Notes under the pieces: model-generated
What the model saw: the letters and a program-made list of their open reading frames with translations, nothing else
The model's database searches: none
Told to the model about the DNA's origin: nothing
Part shown: positions 1-12,616 of the stretch, in pieces
Position numbering within the stretch: the stretch's first letter is position 1
Layout of the letters: each line of letters begins with the position of its first letter
Virus record (IMG/VR): IMGVR_UViG_2526164633_000018
Coordinates: 1 to 13,238 of that record
Reading direction: 5' to 3' (one strand)
Length of the DNA: 13,238 nucleotides
From: a virus
Lineage: Duplodnaviria; Heunggongvirae; Uroviricota; Caudoviricetes
Program-made: the position numbers and the translations under genes

Positions 1-4
1 GGGA

Positions 5-322
5 ATGACGTTCCCGGAACTGTATGACGACAGCCATCCGGAAGCCCTGGCCCGTAATACCCAGAAAATTTTCCGTTGGCTGGATAAAGACACCCCTGAT
101 GCTGTTGAAAAAATGCAGGCTCTGTTACCGGCGATCGAAAAGGCGATGCCGCCTTTGCTGGTGGCCCGTATGCGCAGCCACAGTTCTGAATATTACCGTG
201 AGATCGTCGAACGGAGGGATCGGCTGGTGAAGGATGTCGATGATTTTGTTGCGTCAGCGGTTGTTTTGTATGACCAGATGAATCGCGGCGGCCCGGCAGG
301 GAATGCTGTGGTGATGCACTAA
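5..322 (+). CDS. Phage early-region protein, probably 5'-truncated at the window edge; possibly a CII/YdaT-like regulator
   Basis: Reading frame is open back to nt 2 with no visible RBS, so the true start probably lies upstream of the window. Stop TAA at 320-322. It sits directly upstream of the replication initiator, as ydaT does in Rac-type modules. The family assignment is inference from position only. Confidence 0.4.
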   Translation: MTFPELYDDSHPEALARNTQKIFRWLDKDTPDAVEKMQALLPAIEKAMPPLLVARMRSHSSEYYREIVERRDRLVKDVDDFVASAVVLYDQMNRGGPAGNAVVMH

Positions 323-344
323 AAGCACGGTGTTCGGGGGTTTT

Positions 345-1493
345 ATGAGCAGCAAGCTTCATGGTCTTGTCTGGGAAGGGTGCGCCTTCACCGGCATGAT
401 CTTATCCAGGGTGGCGGTTATGGCCCGTCTTGCAGACTACAGCAATGACGAGGGCGTGTCATGGCCTGCCATTGAAACTATCCGGCGTCAGATCGGTGCA
501 AGAAGTGAATCCACAGTGAAATCGGCTATTGCAGAACTGGCGAAAGAGGGCTGGCTGACGAAGGAAGAGCGTAAGGTCGGTGGGCGTAATGTAAGCAATA
601 TCTATCGGCTTAATGTGGAAAAACTCGAAGCAGCTGCGGCGGCGGCGCGTGAGTCATATAAACCGAAAAGAAAAATTAGCCCGGCAAAAAATGACCCGTT
701 AACAGTTGACCCGTCAAATATTGACCCCTCAACGGTTGACCCGTCAAATTTTGATGGATCAACTGTTGATAAAAAACTGCCGATTAGGGGGGCGATGATT
801 GACCCCGATCCGTCAGTATTAAAACCTGATCCGTCAGATAAAAGATCTTCTTGTCCGGACGCTTCGCAACCGGACCCGCAGACGGCTGAACAGGATTTTT
901 TAACCCGACACCCTGACGCGGTTGTGTTCAGTGCGAAAAAACGCCAGTGGGGAAGTCAGGAAGATTTGGTGTGCGCACAGTGGATCTGGGGACGAATCGT
1001 GAGTCTTTACGAGCAGGCGGCCAGCGATGATGGCGAGATCACTAGACCGAAAGAACCCAACTGGACAGCATGGGCCAATGACGTTCGCACAATGCGGATG
1101 CTGGATGGCAGAACTCACAGACAAATTTGTGAAATGTTTGGGCGTCTCCAGCGGGATTCGTTCTGGGTAAAAAACATCATGAGTCCGGCAAAACTCCGGG
1201 AAAAATGGGATGAACTGGTTATCCGCCTGGGGCGTTCGCCTGCGCAGCGTTGCGTGAATCACATTTCTGAACCGGACACTGAAATACCGCCGGGATTCGA
1301 GGGGGTGACGTGTCATGAAAAACATTGCGGCAGGTTGGGGTTCTTGAACGTATTCGCAGACTTGCACCGACAGGGGTCGCTCCACCGTACCGGACGGTGG
1401 AGGAGTGGCGGGAATGGCAACTTGCTGAAGGACGAAAACGCAGCGAGGAGATTAACCGCCAGAATCGCCAGTTGCGGGTGGAAAAAATCCTGA
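345..1493 (+). CDS. Replication initiator (O-like): N-terminal HTH domain plus a C-terminal region resembling primosomal protein DnaT
   Basis: ATG at 345 follows a G-rich SD (cggggg, 335-340); the six-frame ORF opens at GTG 330. The N-terminus (ARLADYSNDEGVSWPAIETIRRQIGARSESTVKSAIAELAKEGWL) looks like an HTH. The C-terminal motif SEPDTEIPPGFEG matches my recollection of the DnaT C-terminus (…SEPDSQIPPGFRG). The last ~60 codons (VTCHEKHCGRLG…) are rich in C/H/R/G/W and look like an out-of-frame read-through into the next gene. Confidence 0.7.
   Translation: MSSKLHGLVWEGCAFTGMILSRVAVMARLADYSNDEGVSWPAIETIRRQIGARSESTVKSAIAELAKEGWLTKEERKVGGRNVSNIYRLNVEKLEAAAAAARESYKPKRKISPAKNDPLTVDPSNIDPSTVDPSNFDGSTVDKKLPIRGAMIDPDPSVLKPDPSDKRSSCPDASQPDPQTAEQDFLTRHPDAVVFSAKKRQWGSQEDLVCAQWIWGRIVSLYEQAASDDGEITRPKEPNWTAWANDVRTMRMLDGRTHRQICEMFGRLQRDSFWVKNIMSPAKLREKWDELVIRLGRSPAQRCVNHISEPDTEIPPGFEGVTCHEKHCGRLGFLNVFADLHRQGSLHRTGRWRSGGNGNLLKDENAARRLTARIASCGWKKS
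692..766 (+). repeat. Iteron array inside the initiator gene: five tandem 15-bp repeats (TGACCCGTCAANNNT consensus), putative origin of replication
   Basis: Direct repeats tgacccgttaacagt / tgacccgtcaaatat / tgacccctcaacggt / tgacccgtcaaattt / tgatggatcaactgt, each with an internal TGAC..GTCA dyad. An A-rich stretch (tgataaaaaactg) and two gatccgtcag repeats follow at 767-830. At protein level this encodes the (V/I)DPS(N/T) repeat. Lambda's ori lies inside O in the same way. Confidence 0.55.
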
Positions 1494-2062
1494 ATCGTTC
1501 GGGCATCCAGCCTCTGCACAGCAAATGCTCGTTTGCAAATTATCAGGTGCAGAACGACGGGCAAAAATACGCGCTGAGCCAGGCCAAATCCATAGCTGAC
1601 GAACTGATGACCGGGTGCACGAATTTTGTGTTCAGCGGTAAAACCGGCACCGGGAAAAATCACCTTGCAGCGGCGATGGGCAACCGGCTGATGGTGAAGG
1701 GGCGCAGCGTGATTATCGTCACCGTGTCTGACGTCATGAGCGTGTTGCATGACAGCTACGACAACGGCAAATCCGGGGAAAAATTTTTACAGGAGCTTTG
1801 CGGGGTTGATTTGCTGGTCCTGGATGAAATAGGCGTTCAGCGGGAGACGAAAAACGAGCAGGTGGTATTGCACCAGATAATTGATCGCCGGACAGCATCA
1901 CTGTGCAGTGTCGGGATGTTAACAAACCTGAATCATGCCGCAATGAGTACGCTTCTTGGTGAGAGGATTATGGACCGCATGACCATGAACGGTGGTCGAT
2001 GGGTGACGTTTAACTGGGATAGCTGGCGTCCAAATGTCAGCAATATGAGGGTTGTGAAGTAA
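1325..2062 (+). CDS. DnaC-like helicase loader (AAA+ ATPase, IstB/DnaC family); start uncertain and N-terminus apparently frame-disrupted
   Basis: Collinear similarity to E. coli DnaC as I recall it: Walker A FSGKTGTGKNHLAAA, Walker B LLVLDEIG, C-terminal WVTFNWDSWR. The six-frame ORF opens with TTG at 1325 with no SD. A well-placed ATG at 1315 (SD gaggggg 1299-1305) encodes MKNIAAGWGS then stops, in a different frame. Stop TAA at 2060-2062. Confidence 0.75.
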   Translation: MRQVGVLERIRRLAPTGVAPPYRTVEEWREWQLAEGRKRSEEINRQNRQLRVEKILNRSGIQPLHSKCSFANYQVQNDGQKYALSQAKSIADELMTGCTNFVFSGKTGTGKNHLAAAMGNRLMVKGRSVIIVTVSDVMSVLHDSYDNGKSGEKFLQELCGVDLLVLDEIGVQRETKNEQVVLHQIIDRRTASLCSVGMLTNLNHAAMSTLLGERIMDRMTMNGGRWVTFNWDSWRPNVSNMRVVK

Positions 2063-2083
2063 TTTTGTCCGGAGGAAATTTTA

Positions 2084-2287
2084 ATGGAAACCGTATCTGA
2101 CGCACTGAAAGCACTGAAAAAAGCCTCTTCACATGTGGTGGCAGCTCGCCTTGGAATCAGTCGTGAAGAGGCTGTCAACGAGCTGTGGGAACTCAAAAGA
2201 AATGGCGTCGTTGATAAAACTGGTCACACCTGGTTCTGGCTGGCGAAGGTGAATCCGGGTAACCGAAGAGCGGCCAGTAAAATCTGA
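2084..2287 (+). CDS. Small hypothetical protein (67 aa), winged-helix-like
   Basis: ATG at 2084 follows SD GGAGG (2071-2075) with 8-nt spacing. Motif [19 protein letters not shown] resembles an HTH. Compact genes on the same strand on both sides. Confidence 0.55.
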
Positions 2288-2297
2288 AGCACAGGAT

Positions 2298-2552
2298 ATG
2301 CTGACCGGGGAGGTCGAACAAAAAGTTACCGCAGACATGATGATTGAGTTTATCGGTCAGGATGGGGCTAAAACGTGTGAGGAACTGGCGGGTAAGTTCG
2401 GTGTCAGTACTCGCAAGGTTGCTTCCACGCTGGCGGTGGTAACCGCAACGGGGCGGCTGGCACGCGTTAATCAGAACGGTAAATTTCGTTACTGCATGCC
2501 GGGCGATAATTTACCAGCAGAGCCGAAAAGCCGCGCTGGTAACGGAAAGTGA
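2298..2552 (+). CDS. Small hypothetical protein (84 aa), winged-helix-like paralog of the preceding ORF
   Basis: ORF immediately follows the previous gene. Motif ELAGKFGVSTRKVASTLAVVTATG is HTH-like. The SD is weak, and an in-frame ATG at 2337 is an alternative start. Confidence 0.5.
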   Translation: MLTGEVEQKVTADMMIEFIGQDGAKTCEELAGKFGVSTRKVASTLAVVTATGRLARVNQNGKFRYCMPGDNLPAEPKSRAGNGK

Positions 2553-2634
2553 TGGTAAGGCCTTTCCTCAGCCAGCAGGTGCTGCGTTACCAGGCCGGGA
2601 AGCCGCAACACAGGAAGAAATTAAAACAGAAACT

Positions 2635-2853
2635 GTGGCGGACATTGTGCAGTCGTTGCCATCGTTTACCGAAACGCAAGCAGATGAGCTGATTTTTCCG
2701 TCCCTGCGCAGGGCAAACCTGGCGCTGCGCAGGGCGAAAAGTGATGTTCAGAAGTGGGAGCGAGTCTGCGCCGCGCTGCGGGAGCTGAACAAGCACCGGG
2801 ATATTGTTCGACAGATTACTGATTCTTCCCGCCGTGTTGTATCGGAAAAGTGA
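2635..2853 (+). CDS. Hypothetical protein (72 aa)
   Basis: ORF with a GTG start and no convincing SD. It fills the gap between flanking genes on the same strand, but the start and reality of the gene are uncertain. Confidence 0.3.
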   Translation: MADIVQSLPSFTETQADELIFPSLRRANLALRRAKSDVQKWERVCAALRELNKHRDIVRQITDSSRRVVSEK

Positions 2854-2868
2854 TTGCCGGAGGCGCTT

Positions 2869-3291
2869 ATGGCAAAAGTATTTACACAAGAAGAGCGGGA
2901 AAAAATTAAAGGGCAGGTTGTTGAGCTAGTACGCCGGAGTGGGCGCGAGACGTTACGGCAACTGGAAGCCAAGACAGGTGCGACAAGATATCTGATGAGT
3001 GTTCTCGCCAGAGAGCTGGTTGCCAGTGGCGATGTATACAACTCTGGTTACGGGTTATTCCCGTCTGAACAGGCGCGTAAGGACTGGCAAAACGCCCGCA
3101 AAAAACTCTCAAGGGCAAATCTGAAGAAACCATCTGTGGTTGATCCTGACCTTATCTGGCCATTACCAGACGGAGAAATACGCCGCTACGACAGGCGTCA
3201 AAACATAATCTGTAGCGAGTGCCGGAAGAGCGAAGCTATGCAGCGTGTACTGGCTTTCTATCAGGGTAATTTTCAGAAGGTGCTGTTGTGA
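2869..3291 (+). CDS. Hypothetical protein (140 aa) with an N-terminal winged-helix-like region and a C-terminal Cys-containing segment
   Basis: ATG at 2869 follows SD GGAGG (2859-2863); the six-frame ORF opens 5 codons earlier at 2854. Motif LRQLEAKTGATRYLMSVLARELVASG. Stop TGA at 3289-3291. Confidence 0.55.
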   Translation: MAKVFTQEEREKIKGQVVELVRRSGRETLRQLEAKTGATRYLMSVLARELVASGDVYNSGYGLFPSEQARKDWQNARKKLSRANLKKPSVVDPDLIWPLPDGEIRRYDRRQNIICSECRKSEAMQRVLAFYQGNFQKVLL

Positions 3292-3396
3292 GCCAAATTA
3301 ACAATCGGAACTTCGTGAAGAGAAAGCATAATCCAAATCTGAATAATTAAGTTCAGCACTGTAAATAAAATTTAATCCTTAACTGGAGGTATATCT

Positions 3397-3609
3397 ATGT
3401 CAAATACACAGAAAATTATTAACACTGAAAAATATAACGAGTGGGTGAAAAAATTCTCTGAGCAGATTTTTAAAATTACTGGCGACGAGAATGTGGCAAA
3501 AAATGAATTGGAACCGTGGACACCTGAAGGAAACGCACCAAATTATTGCTGGTGGGAGGTTGATCCGGTTGATGCTGCAAATGAAGCCATGAGTTACCAC
3601 AACGATTAA
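3397..3609 (+). CDS. Cassette gene A1: small acidic hypothetical protein (70 aa)
   Basis: Strong SD (ctggaggt) 7 nt upstream of ATG 3397. Intact paralog at 4663-4875 with about 9 of 70 residues different. Stop TAA at 3607-3609. Confidence 0.6.
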   Translation: MSNTQKIINTEKYNEWVKKFSEQIFKITGDENVAKNELEPWTPEGNAPNYCWWEVDPVDAANEAMSYHND

Positions 3610-3641
3610 TGTCGGGAGGCCGCCCGAAAGGGCGGTAAGAA

Positions 3642-3860
3642 ATGACTACATTATTCAGAAAAGAATATCCGCAAAAAAGTAGGGCGACAGAATTTTTGTT
3701 TCTCATTCTGTTTATCGTATTGATGATACCGATATCCCCTCTAATTTTTGTCTGGGCAATCGGGAAAATAATTGAGCCAGTTACTGAATTGTATAACGAC
3801 GTGGTATGGGCGTCATTCAACACACTGCACAATAAAATTAATCCGTATAAGGAAAACTGA
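3642..3860 (+). CDS. Cassette gene B1: small membrane protein (72 aa, one predicted TM helix)
   Basis: ATG at 3642 lies just downstream of a GC hairpin (gccgccc-gaaa-gggcggt) that follows a gggagg motif. Hydrophobic core FLFLILFIVLMIPISPLIFVWAIG. Stop TGA at 3858-3860 sits 1 nt before the next ATG. Confidence 0.5.
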   Translation: MTTLFRKEYPQKSRATEFLFLILFIVLMIPISPLIFVWAIGKIIEPVTELYNDVVWASFNTLHNKINPYKEN

Positions 3861-3861
3861 T

Positions 3862-4124
3862 ATGGCAACTTTGACAAAAAAGAACGGGCATGGTTGAACG
3901 AATTACAGGAAGTTCTTGATCGCTGTCCATCACCGAAAAAAATTGGCTTTTACACCATTGGCGATAAAAGCATTTACCTGTATGACCTACGCCGCATGGA
4001 TGAAATCATGGAGGCTCTTGATAATCGTTCGTCGATGGATTGGTGTGTTGCTGTTCATGATATGAATGCAGGGTTTGATGAAAAGATTTTGTTCCCCTCA
4101 TCAGTTGAAAGCACTGCGGGTTAA
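3862..4124 (+). pseudogene. Cassette gene C1, frameshifted in an A-tract (A6 here versus A7 in the intact paralog)
   Basis: ATG 3862 with the same SD context as C2, but atg gca act ttg aca aaa aag aac ggg cat ggt tga stops after 11 codons. The rest of the protein (NELQEVLDRCPSPKK…STAG) is intact in the +1 frame from TTG 3894. The paralog at 5127-5390 reads MATLTKKERAWLNELQ… uninterrupted. Confidence 0.45.
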
Positions 4125-4255
4125 GGAGTAACACATGACCACTATTACCAAAGAACGTATTGAATTGTTCATTAAATTTTCAGGAGGCGGTACTGTGAGT
4201 GAAATTAGCTATCAGGCTTCAATTACCGCTGGCATTCGCATCAAAGGAGAGGAGC

Positions 4256-4612
4256 ATGGAAATAAAACCAGAGGATGAGTTAAGCAATATCGTTTTATTT
4301 CCGGTAAAAGAGGATGACCCTCGTAATCAGGTTAATTTTCTTTATGAGCCATCGGAAAGACCATATTGCCATCACGCCTCTGTTCGGGTTGACGAAAAAG
4401 AGCGTCAGGTCCGCTGTAAAATCTGCGGTGCAGTTGTGGAGCCGTTTGACTGGATGCTCTCTGTGGCGAAAAGAGAAACCAGACTGGCAGATGATGTAAG
4501 GCTATTGCGCCAGGAGGAACAGGAAAGGCGGAAAAATATAGAAAAGTTAATTCAGATTGAGCGTAACGCGAAAGCGCGGATACGCAGGGCGACAAAATCC
4601 AGAACTGAATAA
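4256..4612 (+). CDS. Hypothetical zinc-ribbon-like protein (118 aa) with a basic, probably coiled-coil C-terminus
   Basis: ATG 4256 follows SD aggagaggag (4244-4253). Motifs PYCHH…CKICG are candidate metal ligands. C-terminus is rich in R/K/E/Q. Lies in the unique segment between the two cassette copies. The six-frame ORF opens upstream at 4199. Confidence 0.55.
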   Translation: MEIKPEDELSNIVLFPVKEDDPRNQVNFLYEPSERPYCHHASVRVDEKERQVRCKICGAVVEPFDWMLSVAKRETRLADDVRLLRQEEQERRKNIEKLIQIERNAKARIRRATKSRTE

Positions 4613-4662
4613 ATAAATTTAGCGCTGTAAATAAAATCTAATCCTTAACTGGAGGTATATTT

Positions 4663-4875
4663 ATGTTAAATACACAGAAAGCCATTAATGCGGAAAAATA
4701 TAACGAGTGGGCAAGAAAATTCTCTGAGCAGATTTTTAAAATTACTGGCGATGAGAATGCGGCAAAAAATGAATTAGAACCGTGGACGCCTGAAGGAGCC
4801 GACCCAAATTATTGCTGGAGGGAGGTTGATCCAGTTGATGCTGCAAATGAAGCTATGAGTTATCACAACGATTAA
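4663..4875 (+). CDS. Cassette gene A2: small acidic hypothetical protein (70 aa), paralog of A1
   Basis: Same SD (ctggaggt) and start context as A1. Protein is about 87% identical to A1 by eye. Confidence 0.6.
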   Translation: MLNTQKAINAEKYNEWARKFSEQIFKITGDENAAKNELEPWTPEGADPNYCWREVDPVDAANEAMSYHND

Positions 4876-4907
4876 TGTCAGGAGGCCGCCCGAAAGGGCG
4901 GTAATGA

Positions 4908-5124
4908 ATGGTCACATTATTTAGAAAAAATATCCGCGAAAGAGTAGAACAACAGAATTTCTGTTTCTCATTCTGTTTATCGTGTTGATGATACCGATAT
5001 CCCCGTTAATCCTAGCCTGGATAATCGGAAAAATAATTGAGCCAGTTATTGAATTGTATAACGACGTGGTATGGGCGTCATTCAACACACTGCACAATAA
5101 AATTAATCCGTATAAGGAAAACTG
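4908..5124 (+). pseudogene. Cassette gene B2, frameshifted by a 1-nt deletion in an A-rich tract
   Basis: ATG 4908 aligns with the B1 start. U1 reads agaaaagaatatccg where U2 reads agaaaaaatatccg, so the frame runs MVTLFRKNIRERVEQQNFCFSFCLSC then stops at 4986-4988. The TM-encoding remainder is only open in another frame, ending at TGA 5122-5124. Confidence 0.4.
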
Positions 5125-5126
5125 AT

Positions 5127-5390
5127 ATGGCAACTTTGACAAAAAAAGAACGGGCATGGTTGAACGAATTACAGGAAGTTCTTGATCGCTGTCCATCACC
5201 GAAAAAAATTGGCTTTTACACCATTGGCGATAAAAGCATTTACCTGTATGACCTACGCCGCATGGATGAAATCATGGAGGCTCTTGATAATCGTTCGTCG
5301 ATGGATTGGTGTGTTGCTGTTCATGATATGAATGCAGGGTTTGATGAAAAGATTTTGTTCCCCTCATCAGTTGAAAGCACTGCGGGTTAA
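5127..5390 (+). CDS. Cassette gene C2: hypothetical protein (87 aa), the intact copy
   Basis: ATG 5127 follows SD aaggaaaa. The six-frame ORF opens upstream at 5037 and includes this sequence. Stop TAA at 5388-5390. Confidence 0.6.
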   Translation: MATLTKKERAWLNELQEVLDRCPSPKKIGFYTIGDKSIYLYDLRRMDEIMEALDNRSSMDWCVAVHDMNAGFDEKILFPSSVESTAG

Positions 5391-5400
5391 GGAGTAACAC

Positions 5401-6270
5401 ATGACCACTATTACCAAAGAACGTATTGAATTGTTCATTAAAAATCCGCTTGAAAACGGGCTTACCCGTGGTGAACAAATGGAACTGGCACGGATTGCGC
5501 TGGCATCGCTGGAAGCAGAGCCGGTGGCAAAGATTATAGCTCATTACCCATTAGGGGTTGACGTAGGCAAACAAAAATTCGTACAGGCCATTAGAGAGCT
5601 TCCTGACTTTGGCGGATATCTATTTGCCGCCCCTCCAGCGCCGATAGTGCCGGAAGAAATGTATTGGCAGGATGCGCCAGTTGAAGGCAGCAGCAAAGCG
5701 ACTGCATACGCTACAGGCTGGAACGATTGCCGCGAAGCCATGCTTCAGTCCGGAAACTTTCGGGAAAATAAAGATTCGTCAACCAATAATTTTCGGAAAA
5801 TCCCGGAAGCGTCAACCAGCTCTCCGGTAACTCCGGCTCTTCTGCCTGGTGGTTTCACCATTGAGGAGGCGAAGGAATTACATGAAGACCTGGTACGCAG
5901 CCACATAAGCAAGGCCTTAAGTGGCGAAAAGATGAAAAAGAAAGATCGCGATGCTGATTTGCGCTGGATTCATGGCGTTATAGTTCAGGCAGCGTGGTTT
6001 GTAAAAGCATCACTGGAGCAGAATGCACTATCGGGCAACTATCCGGTAACTCCGGATAGTTGGATAAGCTGTAGTGAGCGAATGCCGGATACCAAAACAG
6101 CCGTTCTTGTTGCCAGGGATTTTGGCAGGAAAGGTGACTGGCGAATGAAATGGGCGACTTACATCCCGGGGCATCCTGACGCTAATGATGGGTGGATAAT
6201 ACCTGGTGCGTCGTGGATACCATCACACTGGATGCCTCTACCAGAACCGCCGCAGGAGGTGCGCCAATGA
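5401..6270 (+). CDS. Phage protein with a C-terminal DUF551-like domain (289 aa)
   Basis: ATG 5401 follows SD aaggag. The C-terminal segment (WISCSERMPD…VLVA…W…PSHWMPLPEPP) matches the DUF551 pattern as I recall it from lambdoid nin-region proteins. Stop overlaps the next small ORF. Confidence 0.65.
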   Translation: MTTITKERIELFIKNPLENGLTRGEQMELARIALASLEAEPVAKIIAHYPLGVDVGKQKFVQAIRELPDFGGYLFAAPPAPIVPEEMYWQDAPVEGSSKATAYATGWNDCREAMLQSGNFRENKDSSTNNFRKIPEASTSSPVTPALLPGGFTIEEAKELHEDLVRSHISKALSGEKMKKKDRDADLRWIHGVIVQAAWFVKASLEQNALSGNYPVTPDSWISCSERMPDTKTAVLVARDFGRKGDWRMKWATYIPGHPDANDGWIIPGASWIPSHWMPLPEPPQEVRQ

Positions 6271-6350
6271 ACTGGCCTGAAGCATTTGCAATTACAGGCG
6301 TTGCTATGGCTATCGCTTTTTTAGTATATGTTATTTGTCGGTGGGGGTAA
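6267..6350 (+). CDS. Possible micro-ORF encoding a 27-aa hydrophobic peptide
   Basis: ATG 6267 overlaps the stop of the upstream gene (aATGA). Peptide MNWPEAFAITGVAMAIAFLVYVICRWG has a single TM-like segment. Below usual gene-calling size, so low confidence. Confidence 0.3.
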   Translation: MNWPEAFAITGVAMAIAFLVYVICRWG

Positions 6351-6385
6351 AAACGTTCGCCGGGATTAACACCAAAGGAGGGAAT

Positions 6386-6490
6386 ATGTCGGATGATATA
6401 TCACTGGCAATGGAAGGTGCGCTGGCTGTTGTTGCTGTTGTGGGTGTTTACTGCCTGGTTGTGTTTTTGATGGAGCGCCTGGGGAACTGA
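6386..6490 (+). CDS. Possible micro-ORF encoding a 34-aa hydrophobic peptide
   Basis: Strong SD aaggaggg (6375-6382) before ATG 6386. Peptide MSDDISLAMEGALAVVAVVGVYCLVVFLMERLGN has an acidic N-terminus and a TM-like core. Confidence 0.4.
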   Translation: MSDDISLAMEGALAVVAVVGVYCLVVFLMERLGN

Positions 6491-6531
6491 ATTCATTCCG
6501 TATGGGAATTCCCATATCGGGTAAAAACGGT

Positions 6532-6559
6532 TTGCGGTAAAGCGAGAGTTAAGTAGAAT
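6532..6559 (+). promoter_or_regulatory. Putative sigma70 promoter of the hok mRNA
   Basis: -35 TTGCGG (6532-6537), 16-bp spacer, -10 TAGAAT (6554-6559). The predicted 5' leader begins …gcttgaggctatctgcctcagg, which resembles the conserved hok mRNA 5' element as I recall it. Confidence 0.45.
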
Positions 6560-6619
6560 TGCTGCGGGTGCTTGAGGCTATCTGCCTCAGGCATGAACAC
6601 CAAAAGGCAGATAGAGAAA

Positions 6620-6690
6620 AGCCCCAGTTAACATTACGCGTCCTGCAAGACGCTTAACATTAATCTGAGGCCCAATCTATGTCTCACAAA
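6620..6690 (-). ncRNA. sok: Putative Sok-like antisense RNA; boundaries approximate
   Basis: On the minus strand there is a promoter-like -35 TTGCCT (complement of 6717-6722), 17-bp spacer and -10 TAACCT (complement of 6694-6699). The transcript would be antisense to the upstream ATG at 6679 and its SD. Inferred from hok/sok locus organisation; ends not determined. Confidence 0.3.
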
Positions 6691-6735
6691 TGTAGGTTAG
6701 CCTCTTACGTGCCGAAAGGCAAGGAGAAGCAGGCT

Positions 6736-6891
6736 ATGAAGCAGCAAAAGGCGATGTTAATCGCCCTGATCGTCATCTGTTTAACCGTCATAGTGACGGC
6801 ACTGGTAACGAGGAAAGACCTCTGCGAGGTACGAATCCGAACCGGCCAGACGGAGGTCGCTGTCTTCACAGCTTACGAACCTGAGGAGTAA
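6736..6891 (+). CDS. hokD: Hok/Gef-family type I toxin (51 aa), HokD/RelF-like
   Basis: Translation MKQQKAMLIALIVICLTVIVTALVTRKDLCEVRIRTGQTEVAVFTAYEPEE matches the Hok family (TM helix plus the conserved periplasmic tail) and, from memory, HokD/RelF specifically. SD aaggagaag lies upstream. The six-frame ORF opens at an upstream in-frame ATG (6679). Confidence 0.85.
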   Translation: MKQQKAMLIALIVICLTVIVTALVTRKDLCEVRIRTGQTEVAVFTAYEPEE

Positions 6892-6958
6892 GAGACCAGG
6901 CGGGGGAGAATCCCTCGCCACCTCTGATGTGTCAGGCATCCTCAACGCACCCGCACTT

Positions 6959-6985
6959 AACCCGCTTCGGCGGGTTTTGTTTTTT
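6959..6985 (+). terminator. Rho-independent terminator ending the hok transcript
   Basis: Stem aacccgc / gcgggtt with loop ttcg, followed by ttttgtttttt. Confidence 0.6.
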
Positions 6986-7057
6986 CCTAGCATTCTGGTT
7001 TACAATTCGCACGCCAGCCTGAACAACTGGCACCTGCTGCGCCAGCAGAGACAACCG

Positions 7058-7336
7058 ATGGCGCACGATACCAAATTACACAATTCTGATGATTCTGCCG
7101 TCTTTGCCAGCAGGCACGGGCGGCGTTCCCGCACTTTCAAATCTGACTGGTTCCAGCATCCCCCATGCACTGAAGAACAGGCCGAGTGGCTAATTCAGTG
7201 CTACCGCAGACACGGATACGAGATTAAGAAAGCCCTCAGCCTCGATTATCGTCACTGGATAATCTCCGTCAGGCTTCCTTACTCCGAGCGCCCACCGCGT
7301 CCGTCCCGCACATTCCAGCAACGCATCTGGAGGTAA
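7058..7336 (+). CDS. Hypothetical protein (92 aa); by position possibly equivalent to the Qin-prophage rem gene
   Basis: ATG 7058 lies inside a longer six-frame ORF (6929-7336) whose upstream part overlaps the hok terminator. It sits between hok and the DUF968 gene, as rem sits between hokD and ydfU in Qin. The rem assignment is from synteny only. Confidence 0.45.
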   Translation: MAHDTKLHNSDDSAVFASRHGRRSRTFKSDWFQHPPCTEEQAEWLIQCYRRHGYEIKKALSLDYRHWIISVRLPYSERPPRPSRTFQQRIWR

Positions 7337-7337
7337 C

Positions 7338-8387
7338 GTGCGGGTATTACTTCGACCTGTTCTGGTACCGGAACTCGGGCTGGTGATCGTTAAGCCGGGC
7401 CGTGAATCCATGCCGGTATTCCACAATACCCGGGTACTGGTGGAGCCGGAACCGAAAAGCATGCGTAATCTGCCGTCCGGGGTTGTTCCTGCCGTTCACC
7501 AGCCGCTAGTGGAAGACAAAACATTGCTGCCGTTTTTCAGTAACGCACGGGTGATTCGTGCTGCTGGTGGTGCTGGTGCATTGTCTGACTGGCTGTTGCG
7601 CCATATTAAATCCTGCCAGTGGCCACACGGCGATTATCATCACAGCGAAACCGTCATTCACCGTTATGGTACCGGCGCAATGGTGTTGTGCTGGCACTGC
7701 GACAACCAGCTGCGTGACCAGACATCCGAATCACTCGGGCAACTTGCTCACCAAAATTTGTCAGCATGGATGATTGACGTCATACGCCATGCAATGAATG
7801 GCACGCAGGAGCGGGAATTATCTCTGGGTGAATTATCCTGGTGGGCGGTCTGCAATCAGGTGGCGGACGCGCTTCCGGAGGCAGTATTACGTCGTTCTCT
7901 GGGGTTACGTGCGGAAAAAATCCGCCCCTTGTACCGCGAAAGCGACATCGTACCGGGAGAGCAGACCGCCATCAGCATACTGAAACAGCGCACAAAAAAT
8001 CTTGCGCCGCTGCCTCACGCCCACCAGCAACAGAACCCACCACAGGAAAAGACGGTGGTCAGCATTGCCGTTGATCCTGAGCCTCCGGAATCTTTCATGA
8101 AACGACCTAAACGTCGCCGCTGGGTTAACGAGAAATACACACGCTGGGTGAAGACTCAGCCGTGTGCGTGTTGTGGTAAGCCAGCCGACGATCCCCATCA
8201 CCTGATTGGTCATGGTCAGGGCGGAATGGGGACAAAATCTCACGATATTTTCACGCTACCGCTGTGTCGGGAGCATCACAACGAGCTTCATGCGGATCCG
8301 CTGGCGTTCGAAGAAAAGCATGGCTCTCAGGTTGATTTAATTTTTCGTTTTCTTGATCACGCCTTTGCAACTGGCGTGCTTGGGTAA
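7338..8387 (+). CDS. DUF968-type phage protein (YdfU-like, 349 aa) with a C-terminal HNH-like Cys/His motif
   Basis: GTG 7338 follows SD GGAGG (7330-7334). C-terminus …WVKTQPCACCGKPADDPHHLIGHGQGGMGTKSHDIFTLPLCREHHNELH has HNH-type spacing of Cys/His ligands. Position between hok and rusA/Q matches Qin-like synteny. Confidence 0.7.
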   Translation: MRVLLRPVLVPELGLVIVKPGRESMPVFHNTRVLVEPEPKSMRNLPSGVVPAVHQPLVEDKTLLPFFSNARVIRAAGGAGALSDWLLRHIKSCQWPHGDYHHSETVIHRYGTGAMVLCWHCDNQLRDQTSESLGQLAHQNLSAWMIDVIRHAMNGTQERELSLGELSWWAVCNQVADALPEAVLRRSLGLRAEKIRPLYRESDIVPGEQTAISILKQRTKNLAPLPHAHQQQNPPQEKTVVSIAVDPEPPESFMKRPKRRRWVNEKYTRWVKTQPCACCGKPADDPHHLIGHGQGGMGTKSHDIFTLPLCREHHNELHADPLAFEEKHGSQVDLIFRFLDHAFATGVLG

Positions 8388-8399
8388 AAGAGGTGACTG

Positions 8400-8774
8400 A
8401 TGCTCATAGATTTGGTTTTACCTTACCCGCCAACGGTGAACACCTACTGGCGACGTCGTGGCAGCACATATTTTATCTCGGAGGAGGGAAAGCGTTATCG
8501 CCGGGCTGTGGCGCTTATTGTTCGCCAGCAGCGGCTGAAATTAATCCTGTCCGGAAGGCTGGCGATAAAGGTGATTGCAGAGCCACCGGATAAGCGTCGT
8601 CGCGACCTGGACAATATCCTGAAAGCACCGCTGGATGCGCTGACGCATGCGGGAGTGTTAATGGACGATGAGCAGTTTGATGAAATCAATATCGTTCGTG
8701 GTCAGCCAGTATCTGGTGGACGTCTGGGGGTGAAGATTTACCCCATAATGCTTGAAGGGCAGGTCAAAAAATGA
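8400..8774 (+). CDS. rusA: RusA-family Holliday-junction resolvase (124 aa)
   Basis: ATG 8400 follows SD agaggtg. Motif PDKRRRDLDNILKAPLDALTHAGVLMDDEQ matches the RusA catalytic region (recalled E. coli RusA …PDRRRRDLDNLQKA…). Stop overlaps the next gene start (ATGA at 8771-8774). Confidence 0.85.
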   Translation: MLIDLVLPYPPTVNTYWRRRGSTYFISEEGKRYRRAVALIVRQQRLKLILSGRLAIKVIAEPPDKRRRDLDNILKAPLDALTHAGVLMDDEQFDEINIVRGQPVSGGRLGVKIYPIMLEGQVKK

Positions 8775-9592
8775 AACTGGAAGATTTACCGAAATACTAC
8801 TCCCCAAAATCCCTCGGCCTGACTGATGCATCGGCCTCAACGTCGAAAGATACGCTGAGTATCACTGATGTGATGGCCGCGCAGGGCATGACACAGAATT
8901 GGGCTGAGATGGGGTTTTCTGCGTTCCTTGGGAAAATGGGCATTAGTATGAATGACAGAGAGCGGGCAACAGAATTGCTGACAGAATATGCACTCAGTCG
9001 GTGTGATCGCGTGGCGGCGTTAAGAAAACTCCCGGCAGAAATAAAACCGGCAGTGATGCGTATTATGGCTTCGTATGCGTTTGAAGATTATGCCCGTAGC
9101 GCGGCGAGCAAAAAACAGTGCCCCTGTTGTCACGGAAAAAAATTTATTGAAAGCGAGGTTTTTACAAACAAGATCCAGTATCCGGATGGTAAGCCGCCAG
9201 TGTGGGCAAAGTGCACAAAAGGAGTGTATCCGTCTTACTGGGAGGAATGGAAAAAAGTCAGGGAGGTGGTAAAAGTTGCCTGTCCGGAGTGTGGAGGGAA
9301 GGGAGAGGTATCCACTGCCTGTAAAGATTGTCGTGGGCGCGGTGTTGCCATTCATCGTGAAGAGTCGGTAAAACGTGGTATGCCTGTTATCAGAGACTGC
9401 CAGCGTTGTGGTGGTCGTGGCTATGAAAGATTACCTTCAACGGAGGCATTTAATGCCATATGTAATGTAACCGATGCCATATCTCTTGATACATGGAAAA
9501 AAACAGTTAAACGTTTTTACGATACGCTGGTGGTGCAGTTTGATATTGAAGAAGCATGGGCAGAACAACAACTGAAAAAGGTGACCAGATAG
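8771..9592 (+). CDS. Lambda-type late antiterminator Q (273 aa), longer than lambda Q
   Basis: Collinear with lambda Q as I recall it: SPKS…TDVMAA.GM…YA(F/Y)(E/A)DY.RSAA…Cys-rich zinc motifs…(F/L)YD.LVVQ…VTR at the C-terminus. It is followed immediately by a lambda PR'-like sequence. Confidence 0.85.
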   Translation: MKLEDLPKYYSPKSLGLTDASASTSKDTLSITDVMAAQGMTQNWAEMGFSAFLGKMGISMNDRERATELLTEYALSRCDRVAALRKLPAEIKPAVMRIMASYAFEDYARSAASKKQCPCCHGKKFIESEVFTNKIQYPDGKPPVWAKCTKGVYPSYWEEWKKVREVVKVACPECGGKGEVSTACKDCRGRGVAIHREESVKRGMPVIRDCQRCGGRGYERLPSTEAFNAICNVTDAISLDTWKKTVKRFYDTLVVQFDIEEAWAEQQLKKVTR

Positions 9593-9597
9593 CTTTG

Positions 9598-9633
9598 TTG
9601 ATTTTTCCCGAATCTGTGGTAAATTTGCCCTAA
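9598..9633 (+). promoter_or_regulatory. Late promoter PR' with probable qut / pause-inducing region
   Basis: -35 TTGATT (9598-9603), 16-bp spacer, -10 TAAATT (9620-9625). The segment ggtaaatttgccctaacgatggg closely resembles lambda PR' (ggtaaatttgactcaacgatggg, from memory). Predicted start is about 9632-9633. Confidence 0.6.
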
Positions 9634-9673
9634 CGATGGGCGTTTTATGCCTGACGTTAGAAGATTTTTTACA

Positions 9674-9696
9674 CCCGTCGCCAGGCGGGTTTTTTT
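9674..9696 (+). terminator. tR'-like rho-independent terminator downstream of PR'
   Basis: GC-rich hairpin cccgt / gcggg with a 6-nt loop, followed by T7 (9690-9696). Sits about 60 nt downstream of the predicted PR' start. Confidence 0.5.
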
Positions 9697-9741
9697 ATGA
9701 CTGAAATCACGCCAGTACAGTAAACGCGCTGGTGGTTGTGA

Positions 9742-10192
9742 ATACCGGTCTTTCAGCTTGCTGGCTTTTTCGACAAGAGTTATTGGTGTGTCACGTTAAC
9801 CGGAAAAAGGAAAGTTTGAGAAACGCGATCTGGCACAGGCGGTTATTAATGCTGCCTACCTGGTGGCCTGTGCAGATGGTGAATGTGAGGCTTCCTAGAA
9901 AGCGAAGATCGAACAGGTACTGCGTAATCAGCCTGCGCTGTCCGCGTTTACGTCAGAAATTAATGCGATTAGCGCAACCATTATCGGTCAGCTGGATACG
10001 AACTTTAAAACTGGTCGTCGTGCGGCGTTACGTGAGATCGAGGATGTGAAACACGATACGCGTGAAGCGGAAGATGTGCTGGATGTGGCGGTGGCCATTG
10101 CGGAGGCAGACGGCGAAATTGAGCCGGAAGAGCGCAAGGTGCTGGAAGAGATTGCCGGTGTTCTGGGTCTTCGTCTGGAGAATCACCTGTGA
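9742..10192 (+). pseudogene. Decayed TerB-like (tellurite-resistance TerB / DjlA-N-type) gene with an in-frame amber stop, a frameshift and no start codon
   Basis: Frame 2 reads …DLAQAVINAAYLVACADGECEAS*KAKIEQVL…AVAIAEADGEIEPEERKVLEEIAGVLGLRLENHL, showing two ADG-E…E repeats typical of TerB domains. A TAG at 9896-9898 falls where the second repeat has Glu. Upstream the frame closes at TAA 9797-9799 with no start, and the N-terminal-like segment GFFDKSYW… is in frame 1. Confidence 0.45.
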
Positions 10193-10320
10193 CGGTAAAA
10201 CTGCGCCTGGCTGTGGCTGCACTCCTGCTGTTTCTGGTGGTGATGGTGGATTTCACCAGCAGAATCATGTCGGTGCTGGCGGATGGGGTGCTGGTCTGCG
10301 GCATTGTGGTATTGCTGTAG
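10189..10320 (+). CDS. Possible small membrane protein (43 aa)
   Basis: GTG 10189 overlaps the TerB-like stop (GTGA) and follows SD ggaga (10176-10180). Peptide VTVKLRLAVAALLLFLVVMVDFTSRIMSVLADGVLVCGIVVLL is hydrophobic throughout. Not listed as its own ORF in the six-frame track; expression is uncertain given the upstream pseudogene. Confidence 0.3.
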   Translation: MTVKLRLAVAALLLFLVVMVDFTSRIMSVLADGVLVCGIVVLL

Positions 10321-10516
10321 CCGGTGATAAAAAGAAACAGCCTGCATAATGCTTGATTTTTTTATTTGCTGTTTATTAAAAATACTACTGCATGGTGAAT
10401 CCCCCTGTGCGGAGGGGCAATCAGCAAGTAGGTATATGTGATAATCGCGGATTCAGGTGCTGATACTGAATTCACCGGGAGGCACCCGGCACCATGCAAG
10501 AAAAAGAATGTGCATG

Positions 10517-10548
10517 CAAAAATGCCCCTCTCCGGAGGGGCATTTTTT
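10517..10548 (+). terminator. Strong rho-independent terminator, potentially bidirectional
   Basis: A-tract caaaaat, then 7-bp stem gcccctc / gaggggc with loop tccg, then atttttt. A second hairpin (gcccgaa-tggg-ttcgggc, 10562-10579) preceded by taaaaaa follows and is oriented for the minus strand. Confidence 0.6.
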
Positions 10549-10762
10549 ATGGGTAAAAAATGCCCGAATGGGTTCGGGCAATAGCATGAGATACTGATAT
10601 TGTTGTGTTGTTATCGTGTGGATTTTAACCAGGGTTTATCAGGCTGCGCAACTGCGTGGCCTTCTTCATTTCTTGGGCTGTAGTCCCCGTGTGTCATTCA
10701 GGCTTCCGGACTACAGCCCACTCCATATCTGATTTAATACACTATCCCGGCCGGGAGGAATA

Positions 10763-12616
10763 ATGACATTTAAACATTATGATGTTGTCAGGGCGGCGTC
10801 GCCGTCAGACCTTGCGGAAAAGCTGACACACAAACTGAAAGAGGGCTGGCAGCCGTTTGGTAGTCCGGTGGCCATAACCCCTTATACCCTGATGCAGGCG
10901 ATTACAGCAGAAGGTGATGTGGTGGTCAGTGGTGCAACTGAGCCGGATTGGTACTACGTCATCGTACTGGCCGGGCAGTCCAATGCCATGGCTTACGGTG
11001 AAGGGCTTCCGCTGCCGGATTCATACGATGCTCCGGATCCGCGCATTAAACAGCTGGCGCGCCGCAGTACAGTGACGCCGGGTGGGGCTGCCTGCAGATA
11101 TAACGATATTATTCCGGCCGACCACTGCCTGCATGATGTGCAGGATATGAGTACGCTGAATCATCCGAAGGCAGACCTGAGCAAAGGGCAGTACGGCTGT
11201 GTCGGCCAGGGCTTACATATTGCCAAAAAACTGCTTCCGTATATCCCGAATAACGCGGGGATCCTGCTGGCACCATGCTGTCGTGGTGGTTCGGCATTCA
11301 CCCAGGGCGCGGAGGGGACATTCAGTGCGGACACGGGGGCCAGCCAGGATTCGGCACGCTGGGGTGTGGGTAAACCGTTATATCAGGACCTGATTGCGCG
11401 CACTAAAGCTGCATTACAGAAGAACCCGAAAAATGTGTTGCTGGCGGTGTGCTGGATGCAGGGAGAGTTTGACATGAGCGCCGCCACCTACGCACAGCAA
11501 CCTGCGCTGTTTACAGCCATGCTGAAGCAGTTTCGTGCTGACCTCACTGTGTTTAACGCGCAGTGTCATGGTGGCAGTGCTGCAGATGTGCCGTGGATTT
11601 GTGGTGACACGACGTATTACTGGAAAAATACATACGCTACCCAGTACGACACCGTGTACGGCGGGTATAAAAACAGGGAGAGTGAGGGCGTTTATTTTGT
11701 GCCCTTCATGACAGACGGTAACGGCGTCAATACCGCCACTAACGCGCCGGCAGAAGATCCGGATATTCCGGCATCAGGATATTACGGTGCGGCATCGAGA
11801 ACGAATGGAAACCAGGTATCATCAAACCGCCCGACACATTTCAGTTCATGGGCGCGCAGGAGCATTATTCCGGATCGTCTGGCAACCGCTATTCTGAACG
11901 CAGCCGGGCGCACCTCAGCCTTCATCAGTGGTAAGGCACCGGAAATCAAACCCTCGCCCGGCGGCAACACGCCATCGGGTCCGTCTGCAGATACGTCCGT
12001 TCGCACAATCTCCCTGCTGCCGGCAGCCGGAGAGGCTGCTGCGCAGGGCTGGAGCATTAAGGATGGCGGAATTCAGTTGTCAGATGGTGTATTTAAGATC
12101 ACCAAGCAGAGCAATAAAACCTGGTCCCTGACGCATCCGGTGGATGACGCAATTACCCTGCTGACACAGGGCGGCAGACTGACCTGTAAGTTCCGCCTGT
12201 CAGGCGCACTGACCAACAATCAGTTCGGGCTGGGGATTTATCTGTATACGGATGCTCCCGTTCCTGATGGTGTGGCGATGACGGGTACCGGTAATCCGTT
12301 CCTGATGTCGTACTTCACTCAGACCACTGACGGCAGAGTGAATCTGATGCATCACAGGAAAGCCGGAAACACGAAGCTGGGGGAGTTCGGCGATTACGGT
12401 AACGACTGGCAGACGCTGGAGCTGGTGTTCACCGCCGGCAGTGCCACGGTTACTCCGAAACTGAATGGAGTGGCTGGCCCGGCATTCCAGGTTATAAAAG
12501 ACGGTCTGACACTGGGACTGAATGCGCTGACGCTGACGGATGTTACAAAAAATGCAGCGTATGGCGTTGAGATAGAAAGTCTGGTGCTGGAGATAAATGC
12601 ACCGGCATCATCATAA
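10763..12616 (+). CDS. Prophage sialate O-acetylesterase, NanS-p-like (617 aa): N-terminal DUF1737-like region, SGNH/SASA esterase domain, C-terminal extension
   Basis: ATG 10763 follows SD gggagg. N-terminus MTFKHYDVV…; esterase motif YVIVLAGQSNAMAYGEG (the GQSN block of sialate esterases). Size and position (after Q, before the holin) match nanS-p genes of Stx-type lambdoid phages. Confidence 0.8.
   Translation: MTFKHYDVVRAASPSDLAEKLTHKLKEGWQPFGSPVAITPYTLMQAITAEGDVVVSGATEPDWYYVIVLAGQSNAMAYGEGLPLPDSYDAPDPRIKQLARRSTVTPGGAACRYNDIIPADHCLHDVQDMSTLNHPKADLSKGQYGCVGQGLHIAKKLLPYIPNNAGILLAPCCRGGSAFTQGAEGTFSADTGASQDSARWGVGKPLYQDLIARTKAALQKNPKNVLLAVCWMQGEFDMSAATYAQQPALFTAMLKQFRADLTVFNAQCHGGSAADVPWICGDTTYYWKNTYATQYDTVYGGYKNRESEGVYFVPFMTDGNGVNTATNAPAEDPDIPASGYYGAASRTNGNQVSSNRPTHFSSWARRSIIPDRLATAILNAAGRTSAFISGKAPEIKPSPGGNTPSGPSADTSVRTISLLPAAGEAAAQGWSIKDGGIQLSDGVFKITKQSNKTWSLTHPVDDAITLLTQGGRLTCKFRLSGALTNNQFGLGIYLYTDAPVPDGVAMTGTGNPFLMSYFTQTTDGRVNLMHHRKAGNTKLGEFGDYGNDWQTLELVFTAGSATVTPKLNGVAGPAFQVIKDGLTLGLNALTLTDVTKNAAYGVEIESLVLEINAPASS

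Follow-up and report, generated by a model that had tools for sequence, protein, structure and literature searches.

A 47-codon open reading frame carrying two apparent nested recombination scars upstream of a zinc-ribbon gene in a lambdoid prophage of Escherichia coli

Gene content of the locus

The stretch of DNA analyzed here (13,238 nt, hereafter the window) comes from a Rac/Qin-like lambdoid (lambda-like) prophage of E. coli, of which it represents the early-right region with its accessory genes. The gene order runs from replication genes through a split DUF1627 gene, a DUF977 gene (Ren-like, 2854-3291) and small accessory genes to a complete DUF551-domain gene of 289 aa (5401-6270, plus strand), beyond which follow sok/hokD, DUF968, rusA, a Q-type antiterminator and a SASA/NanS-like esterase. 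The small accessory genes are labeled A (70 aa, phrog_4659), B (DUF4014), C (87 aa, phrog_1714) and Zn (the 118-aa zinc-ribbon gene), and DUF977' denotes the second DUF977 allele. No Rfam family, promoter-like excess or terminator was found in 3200-5500. Rfam matches above the gathering score elsewhere in the window were the sok antitoxin RNA (6566-6741, plus strand), adjoining hokD (ORF 6679-6891), the sRNA STnc100 (10364-10554, plus strand) and the anti-GcvB sRNA AgvB (10555-10616, minus strand). The DUF551 gene contains an imperfect 33-nt tandem repeat (71%) at 5755-5818, encoding NFRENKDSSTN and NFRKIPEASTS.

Relative to sequences at least 99.4% identical (FDAARGOS_1059 and HCP5S3_I4), the window has single-base indels at 1299, 1333, 1369, 1380-1381, 2234, 2255, 2526, 3876 and 4925, mostly in homopolymer runs. 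They split the replication genes (overlapping ORFs 330-1493 and 1325-2062), the DUF1627 gene (2298-2552 and 2635-2853), and gene C of the first and gene B of the second of two repeat copies, and probably reflect sequencing errors left in an unpolished assembly, not genuine pseudogenes.

Repeat search and pairwise alignment revealed that the accessory genes form an imperfect direct tandem repeat with a period of 1265-1266 nt. Copy 1 (3268-4176, plus strand, 909 nt) is without the zinc-ribbon core and comprises the tail of DUF977 allele 1, A (3397-3609), B/DUF4014 (3642-3860), C (3863-4124, with a 1-nt deletion in an A-run at 3876) and a 5' stub of DUF551. Copy 2 (4175-5442, plus strand, 1268 nt) comprises the DUF977' tail, the Zn gene, A2 (4663-4875), B2 (4908-5125, with a 1-nt deletion at 4925), C2 (5127-5390) and the 5' end of DUF551. 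The units stand head to tail with no foreign DNA between them. Their A and B portions are 89-92% identical (89% for 3327-3626 against 4593-4892, 92% for 3660-3881 against 4925-5146), and 3876-4175 matches 5142-5441 at 100%, the copies being identical through CATTAAA (4170-4176 = 5436-5442) and diverging from 4177. A GC hairpin with a GAAA tetraloop (CCGCCC GAAA GGGCGG) is conserved in both copies at 3620-3635 and 4886-4901; it lies in the interval from the gene A stop to the gene B start, with no T-run after it.

The preliminary description of this DNA had called the DNA after the break unique, which does not hold. The segment 4175-4213 matches the end of the DUF977 gene that precedes copy 1 (3268-3306) at 77% identity, so that the repeat unit restarts at 4175 and the sequence to the right of the break is the tail of DUF977' with its normal downstream region. 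Only a core of about 379 nt (4214-4592, plus strand, delimited by alignment) has no counterpart in copy 1. Since copy 1 retains diverged versions of both flanks of this core, among them some 20 nt from the 3' end of Zn, it looks like an allele from which Zn was deleted, and the difference would reflect deletion rather than insertion of 4214-4592, a direction argued from parsimony only. A second junction that had been placed at about 4604 does not belong to the same event but is the right edge (about 4592/4593) of this core.

The zinc-ribbon gene itself is intact (4256-4612, plus strand) and has its own Shine-Dalgarno sequence, AAGGAGAGGAG, at 4244-4254. Its 118-aa product contains C38-H39-H40 ... 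C54-x-x-C57 and a basic C-terminus, as had been described.

A chimeric open reading frame assembled from three genes

Immediately upstream of Zn, and overlapping its start, an ATG at 4135 opens an ORF of 47 codons (4135-4278, plus strand), annotated in RefSeq as WP_000207966.1 and belonging to PHROGs family phrog_19884, with the product MTTITKERIELFIK FSGGGTVSEISYQASITAGIRIKGEEHGNKTRG*. The coordinates given earlier for this ORF (4136-4279) and for the onset of divergence (4178, actually 4177) were each off by one. Sequence comparison shows the ORF to be a chimera of fragments from three genes, DUF551, DUF977 and an Ea22-like gene, carrying two nested scars. Its left part (4135-4176, plus strand) is the orphaned first 14 codons of a DUF551/EaA-type gene, preceded by the SD of that gene and identical to 5401-5442, the start of the complete DUF551 gene, which represents the donor type; the scar joining these codons to other DNA had thus been correctly recognized. 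After an AA shared by both parents (4175-4176), which marks the crossover point, the sequence continues with the last seven codons and stop (NFQEAVL*) of DUF977' (Ren-like, YdaW-type; 4175-4198, plus strand), read one base out of their native frame. A 29-nt spacer follows (4199-4227, plus strand); it is present in all DUF977'-Zn contexts and missing from Ea22-Zn contexts. The right part (4228-4278, plus strand) consists of the last 16 codons and stop (AGIRIKGEEHGNKTRG*) of an Ea22-like gene in its native frame.

Each of these pieces could be traced to a different intact gene elsewhere (DUF551, DUF977 and Ea22-like), and no related genome holds 4135-4278 inside a larger intact gene, in agreement with the earlier view of the ORF as a remnant rather than part of an intact conserved gene. 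DUF977 genes run without interruption into 4175-4198 and then into Zn in EPSSH018, phage vB_EcoS-813R8 and many E. coli genomes. The Ea22-like protein of the Stx2a phage ArgO145 ends in ...AGIRIKGEEHGNKTRG*, the last 16 residues of the 47-aa product in the identical frame, and in all Ea22-Zn contexts homology to the window begins at 4226-4228. The boundary at about 4227/4228 would therefore represent a second, older scar, parsimony being the only ground for its relative age. An Ea22-like gene upstream is the commonest context of the exact Zn protein; in ArgO145 and many prophages Zn is about 99% the same and the stop/start overlap of 23 nt is as in the window, whereas the window keeps only the last 16 codons of the Ea22-like gene. 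The overlap between the remnant ORF and the Zn start, which had been noticed earlier, is real, but it was inherited from the Ea22-like gene and not made by the joint.

No Pfam family matched the 47-aa product; the Ea22 domain (PF13935) is absent, the Ea22-like gene being reduced to its last 16 codons. The phrog_19884 profile matched over its full length (E = 2.4e-36, 1-47 of 47), and the family appears to consist of the same chimeric ORF only. At about 93% identity, the SD and first 14 codons of DUF551 (4120-4177) resemble the beginning of the eaA gene of Salmonella phage P22 (eaA/eaI boundary), and this 5' module, which also stands before DUF550 genes, is common to several different accessory genes. 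In each DUF977 allele the stop codon overlaps a GTG (GTGA) from which a short ORF begins (3293-3355, VSQINN..., 20 aa; 4195-4278, VSEISY..., 27 aa), the latter matching phrog_37408; this is probably a coincidence of homology.

Formation of the DUF551/DUF977 joint

At the joint, one repeat unit ends with DUF551 codon 14 and the following unit begins seven codons before the DUF977 stop, and the sequence relationship switches abruptly, from the DUF551 5' end left of 4176 to the DUF977' tail and Zn right of 4175. Alignment of the parental types, ...CATTAAA|AATCCG for DUF551 and ...GGGTAA|TTTTCAGG for DUF977' (in longer context ...TTGTTCATTAAA|AATCCG... against ...TATCAGGGTAA|TTTTCAGGAGG...), leaves only 2 nt (AA) shared at the crossover. 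In register, the parents agree at 14/60 positions left of the breakpoint and at 12/60 right of it, and shuffled controls score higher on average than the best local alignment of the two. Given the 2-nt overlap and the lack of flanking homology, the joint is the product of illegitimate recombination within a coding sequence, as the preliminary description had proposed.

A further route to such a joint would be homologous or homeologous (Red/RecT-type) exchange at a short conserved linker. Exchanges of this kind are described as frequent in lambdoid phages (PMC2327257, PMC3945230), and the DUF551 5' stub with its SD is shared by several gene types, including P22 eaA. The parental similarity on either side of the breakpoint is, however, nil beyond the 2 nt. 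Diverged "shoulders", which mark homeologous exchange in the lambdoid analysis of PMC2327257, were not found flanking the 4176 breakpoint in the parental comparison. This route is accordingly very improbable.

The right-hand parental type can be identified from FDAARGOS_1059 as DUF977'-Zn-DUF7167: starting exactly at the joint, 1,458 nt of its rightward sequence match phage 813R8, which has this gene order, at 99.3% identity. We propose that Zn first stood behind an Ea22-like gene whose last 23 nt overlapped the Zn start. An older non-homologous event would have swapped the Ea22-like gene, save its last 16 codons, for DUF977 and the 29-nt spacer, giving the common order DUF977'-Zn. A second non-homologous event, with the 2-nt AA overlap, would then have joined DUF551 codon 14 to the position seven codons before the DUF977' stop, the parents being a DUF977-A-B-C-DUF551 phage and a phage of the DUF977'-Zn-DUF7167 type resembling vB_EcoS-813R8. 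As the start and SD of DUF551 were kept and the new frame was open to the old Ea22 stop, the 47-codon chimeric ORF would have resulted, and the hybrid would then have spread widely in E. coli. Both of these events are shown by sequence comparison, and their order is supported by parsimony only. The account as a whole, with two non-homologous joints followed by a homologous crossover or a mis-join (see below), is likely to be correct.

Spread of the joint and status of the 47-codon ORF

The joint is present in 73 of 5,426 complete E. coli genomes, counted as those covering a 121-nt junction query and including ATCC 25922/Seattle 1946 and ST131 strains, as well as in 21 IMG/VR contigs, while 3,976 collection blocks contain the 47-aa product in exact form. 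Across the 144 nt of the ORF, 34/34 other joint-bearing loci that were retrieved show no differences, and all 34 carry alleles of the 813R8-like DUF977'-Zn-DUF7167 type. The joint is thus inherited, old and widespread, and did not arise in this genome. In E. coli the corresponding locus (for example in ATCC 25922, ZLWT, FDAARGOS_1059 and ST131 strains) reads C (87 aa)-WP_000207966.1 (47 aa)-WP_000403778.1/WP_000403785.1 (118 aa)-DUF7167, with the same upstream genes and an identical joint and 47-codon ORF. Where enough downstream sequence was available, the gene after Zn is DUF7167 in all but two joint-bearing loci and never a second A gene. In the window, by contrast, Zn is followed by a second A-B-C-DUF551 series, and the Zn allele switches at 4369.

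An ORF with a good SD and ATG, which uses the native stop of the former upstream gene and is perfectly conserved in every copy seen, could be a selected gene, either for a functional micropeptide or as a translational relay. In the relay version, ribosomes starting at the DUF551 start codon would end at the old Ea22 stop, 20 nt inside Zn, and termination-reinitiation coupling would be kept; a same-frame GTG ORF is likewise sometimes annotated in DUF977'-Zn contexts (phrog_37408). Nevertheless, perfect identity here reflects recent common descent and has no power to detect selection, and by our own estimate (a factor of 1/3 for the reading frame, multiplied by about 0.44 for the absence of a stop over 17 codons) the frame would be open by chance in about 1 of 7 such joints. 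Furthermore, Zn has its own strong SD, and quite different genes stand upstream of its homologues in other genera. An RNA structure hiding the Zn ribosome-binding site was considered and dismissed, with no sequestration beyond shuffled controls (z-scores of +0.6 and +1.25). Selection for the ORF is therefore quite improbable, and the ORF is probably a fortuitous by-product.

A duplication particular to the window

The sequence of the window itself appears to combine two prophage types. Over 1-4368 it differs from FDAARGOS_1059 by one substitution and by 1-nt indels, mostly in homopolymers, and substitutions accumulate from 4369; the other joint-bearing loci all diverge from the window from 4369 on. 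Over 4317-11900 it differs at only 4 positions from HCP5S3_I4, a canonical DUF977'-Zn-A-B-C-DUF551 prophage. Canonical prophages of this order (DUF977-Zn-A-DUF4014-C-DUF551 in EPSSH018, HCP5S3_I4, RM14723 and O55:H7 CB9615) are 99.6-99.9% identical to the window from 4175-5442 onward, with a complete DUF977 gene in place of the DUF551 stub. Since the left side matches joint-bearing and the right side canonical prophages, the window would be a hybrid whose switch lies within 4188-4368, the interval bounded by the allele matches on either side. The SNP at 4187 was set aside as a discriminator of parentage, being polymorphic among canonical prophages and so not decisive.

In HCP5S3_I4, RM14723 and O55:H7-type prophages, 52 nt near the 5' end of Zn (window 4265-4316) are replaced by 14 nt, which breaks the gene (annotated as partial by PGAP), so that several canonical prophages (O55:H7 type, HCP5S3_I4) carry a damaged Zn gene where the window has an intact one. 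If the right-hand parent carried the damaged HCP5S3_I4 Zn allele, the range of the switch would narrow to 4317-4368, and the crossover would have restored an intact Zn gene.

In the third step of the proposed history, a homologous crossover in Zn (4188-4368) would have joined the joint-bearing hybrid to a canonical DUF977'-Zn-A-B-C-DUF551 prophage, either in the lineage of the window or in its assembly. As the two parents carry Zn on opposite sides of A-B-C, downstream in the joint-bearing hybrid and upstream in the canonical prophage, a single crossover in Zn is enough to give a duplication of 1,266 nt. Only this imperfect tandem duplication would be particular to the window, and it may have come from such a crossover or from an assembly artefact. 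The arrangement joint-Zn-A2 had no match by pattern search in IMG/VR, GTDB representatives or JGI metagenomes, and none of the 5,426 complete E. coli genomes matched it in a single piece. Apparent matches at 100% coverage were rejected as artefacts, being two permuted pieces of single-copy loci joined together.

These absences are compatible with a chimeric assembly, in which a joint-bearing and a canonical prophage resident in the same cell were mis-joined via their shared Zn gene, the joint at 4176 being real all the same. E. coli often holds several related prophages (up to 7 places per genome matched here), and the 1-nt indels, mostly in homopolymers, relative to near-identical relatives indicate an error-prone assembly. 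On the other hand, errors of the homopolymer type suggest long reads, which would span the at most ~180 nt that are shared, and known prophages are otherwise collinear with each of the two halves. An equally simple explanation is that two such prophages recombined naturally by homologous crossover, the standard route to lambdoid hybrids. A mis-join of this kind is somewhat unlikely, though it has to be taken seriously.

The duplication could also be primary, arising in an illegitimate event directly between DUF977-A-B-C-DUF551 and DUF977'-Zn-A-B-C-DUF551 phages, with the joint-Zn-DUF7167 arrangement derived from it. A single event would then suffice to make the window, which is indeed nearly identical to canonical prophages from 4188 on. 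Such an order of events is nevertheless unlikely, given that 34/34 other joint-bearing loci have 813R8-like DUF977'-Zn-DUF7167 alleles, that one of them is 99.3% identical to 813R8 over 1.46 kb from the joint exactly, that the window is the sole joint-bearing sequence to switch allele type at 4369, and that the supposed primary product is seen nowhere else.

Comparison with known lambdoid mosaics

Mosaic "novel joints" of lambdoid phages have been attributed to illegitimate recombination in the model of Hendrix and colleagues, as discussed by Martinsohn et al. 2008 (PMC2327257). The joint in the window resembles them in its abrupt switch with no border signal and almost no parental homology, in its position among small accessory genes of the early region, and in the subsequent spread of the product by homologous exchange. 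Unlike them, it does not fall at a gene boundary but has coding sequence to its left and right, and two scars are stacked here within 144 nt. It was tolerated since the truncations affected accessory genes alone and left the downstream gene with an SD of its own.

The locus is ordinary lambdoid mosaicism, cleanly resolved, with a joint already present in many E. coli genomes, and it leaves the current understanding of phage evolution unchanged. It nevertheless serves as a compact worked example, in which two intragenic non-homologous joints were followed by homologous exchange, and in which the gene order, having been altered by an earlier event, would have made that exchange produce a tandem duplication. 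For annotation, it is useful that a "hypothetical protein" found in thousands of E. coli assemblies can be explained: WP_000207966.1 / phrog_19884 is most likely a chimeric by-product and not a gene. The locus also draws attention to a widespread, unnamed zinc-ribbon family of early phage proteins.

The zinc-ribbon gene and its protein

Profile searching placed the 118-aa protein in phrog_1621 (E = 1.5e-56, residues 1-117 against profile positions 1-120 of 134), and it is a member of a large family without assigned function, comprising 1,593 clusters at 50% identity (profile search, E <= 1e-3), with homologues found across Enterobacterales. The residues C38, H40, C54 and C57, the predicted metal ligands, are invariant in 24 sequences across genera, as is the motif LR.EE..RR.NIEKLIQIERNAKARIR of the C-terminal helix across homologues. 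The AlphaFold2 model (pLDDT 73.6, moderate confidence) has a poorly defined N-terminus, two beta-hairpins with strands at 43-46 and 51-54, and a single helix at 63-117, which amounts to a predicted zinc ribbon of the CxH...CxxC type with one long basic helix (about 55 residues) C-terminal to it.

The best, though weak, sequence and fold matches were TFIIB-type ribbons (PF08271) and ribosomal protein S27e, with residues 36-73 corresponding to the predicted two-hairpin ribbon. PF08271 (Zn_Ribbon_TF) scored 21.5 bits (E = 1.6e-4), under its gathering threshold of 29 bits, and the best Foldseek match, the TFIIB N-terminal domain, had E = 0.23, with nothing at E < 0.2 for the AlphaFold2 model against the PDB and BFVD. 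The ligand set is CxH...CxxC in the Zn protein and CxxC...CxxC in TFIIB/S27e ribbons, and the long conserved basic helix after the ribbon is absent from the TFIIB and S27e families. The profile and structure predictions proposed for this protein in the preliminary description yielded a family and a predicted ribbon-plus-helix fold, but the fold and profile matches gave no function. Pfam scans returned no family covering the zinc-ribbon family, and those of ten longer, distant members no informative fused domain; NCBIfam gave no match for the protein, nor did PDB searches by single sequence and by profile. No PADLOC defence model matched the six neighboring proteins better than E = 0.03, and two ORFs inside Zn (4332-4595, minus strand; 4314-4499, plus strand) had no PHROG match. 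In the literature search no paper mentioned the RefSeq protein ids, and the results for "LygF" and DUF977 were uninformative.

In Klebsiella, Serratia and Yersinia prophages the gene before the homologue (54-73% identity) is YbcO, RusA or NinH, and Q is found one or two genes downstream. These upstream genes rule out an obligatory pairing of Zn with Ea22-like genes, and Zn is a delayed-early accessory gene without a fixed partner. Given its intact ORF and strong SD, the Zn gene in the window is probably expressed as a delayed-early accessory protein. Our best guess for its activity, held with low confidence and built on the predicted ribbon and long helix, is an oligomeric zinc-ribbon/coiled-coil protein that may bind a host protein or nucleic acid. 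A bolder proposal is that the protein is the founding example of an unnamed delayed-early family (about 1,600 clusters, directly upstream of Q in other genera) with a specific regulatory or host-takeover role, that survival of Zn has been selected and that the 47-codon ORF serves as its lead-in; the maintenance of an intact Zn through three successive upstream rearrangements would then reflect selection for its expression. We consider this proposal unlikely.

In the loci of Klebsiella, Serratia and Yersinia, the Zn start mostly overlaps the stop of the upstream gene by 4 nt. Some database entries have Zn fused to an upstream domain, as Ea22::Zn (P0002, P0006, P0042), DUF977::Zn (P0040, P0043, P0061), DUF1133::Zn (P0015) and DUF1627::Zn (P0030), and these may be further rearrangements, frameshifts or gene-calling artefacts.
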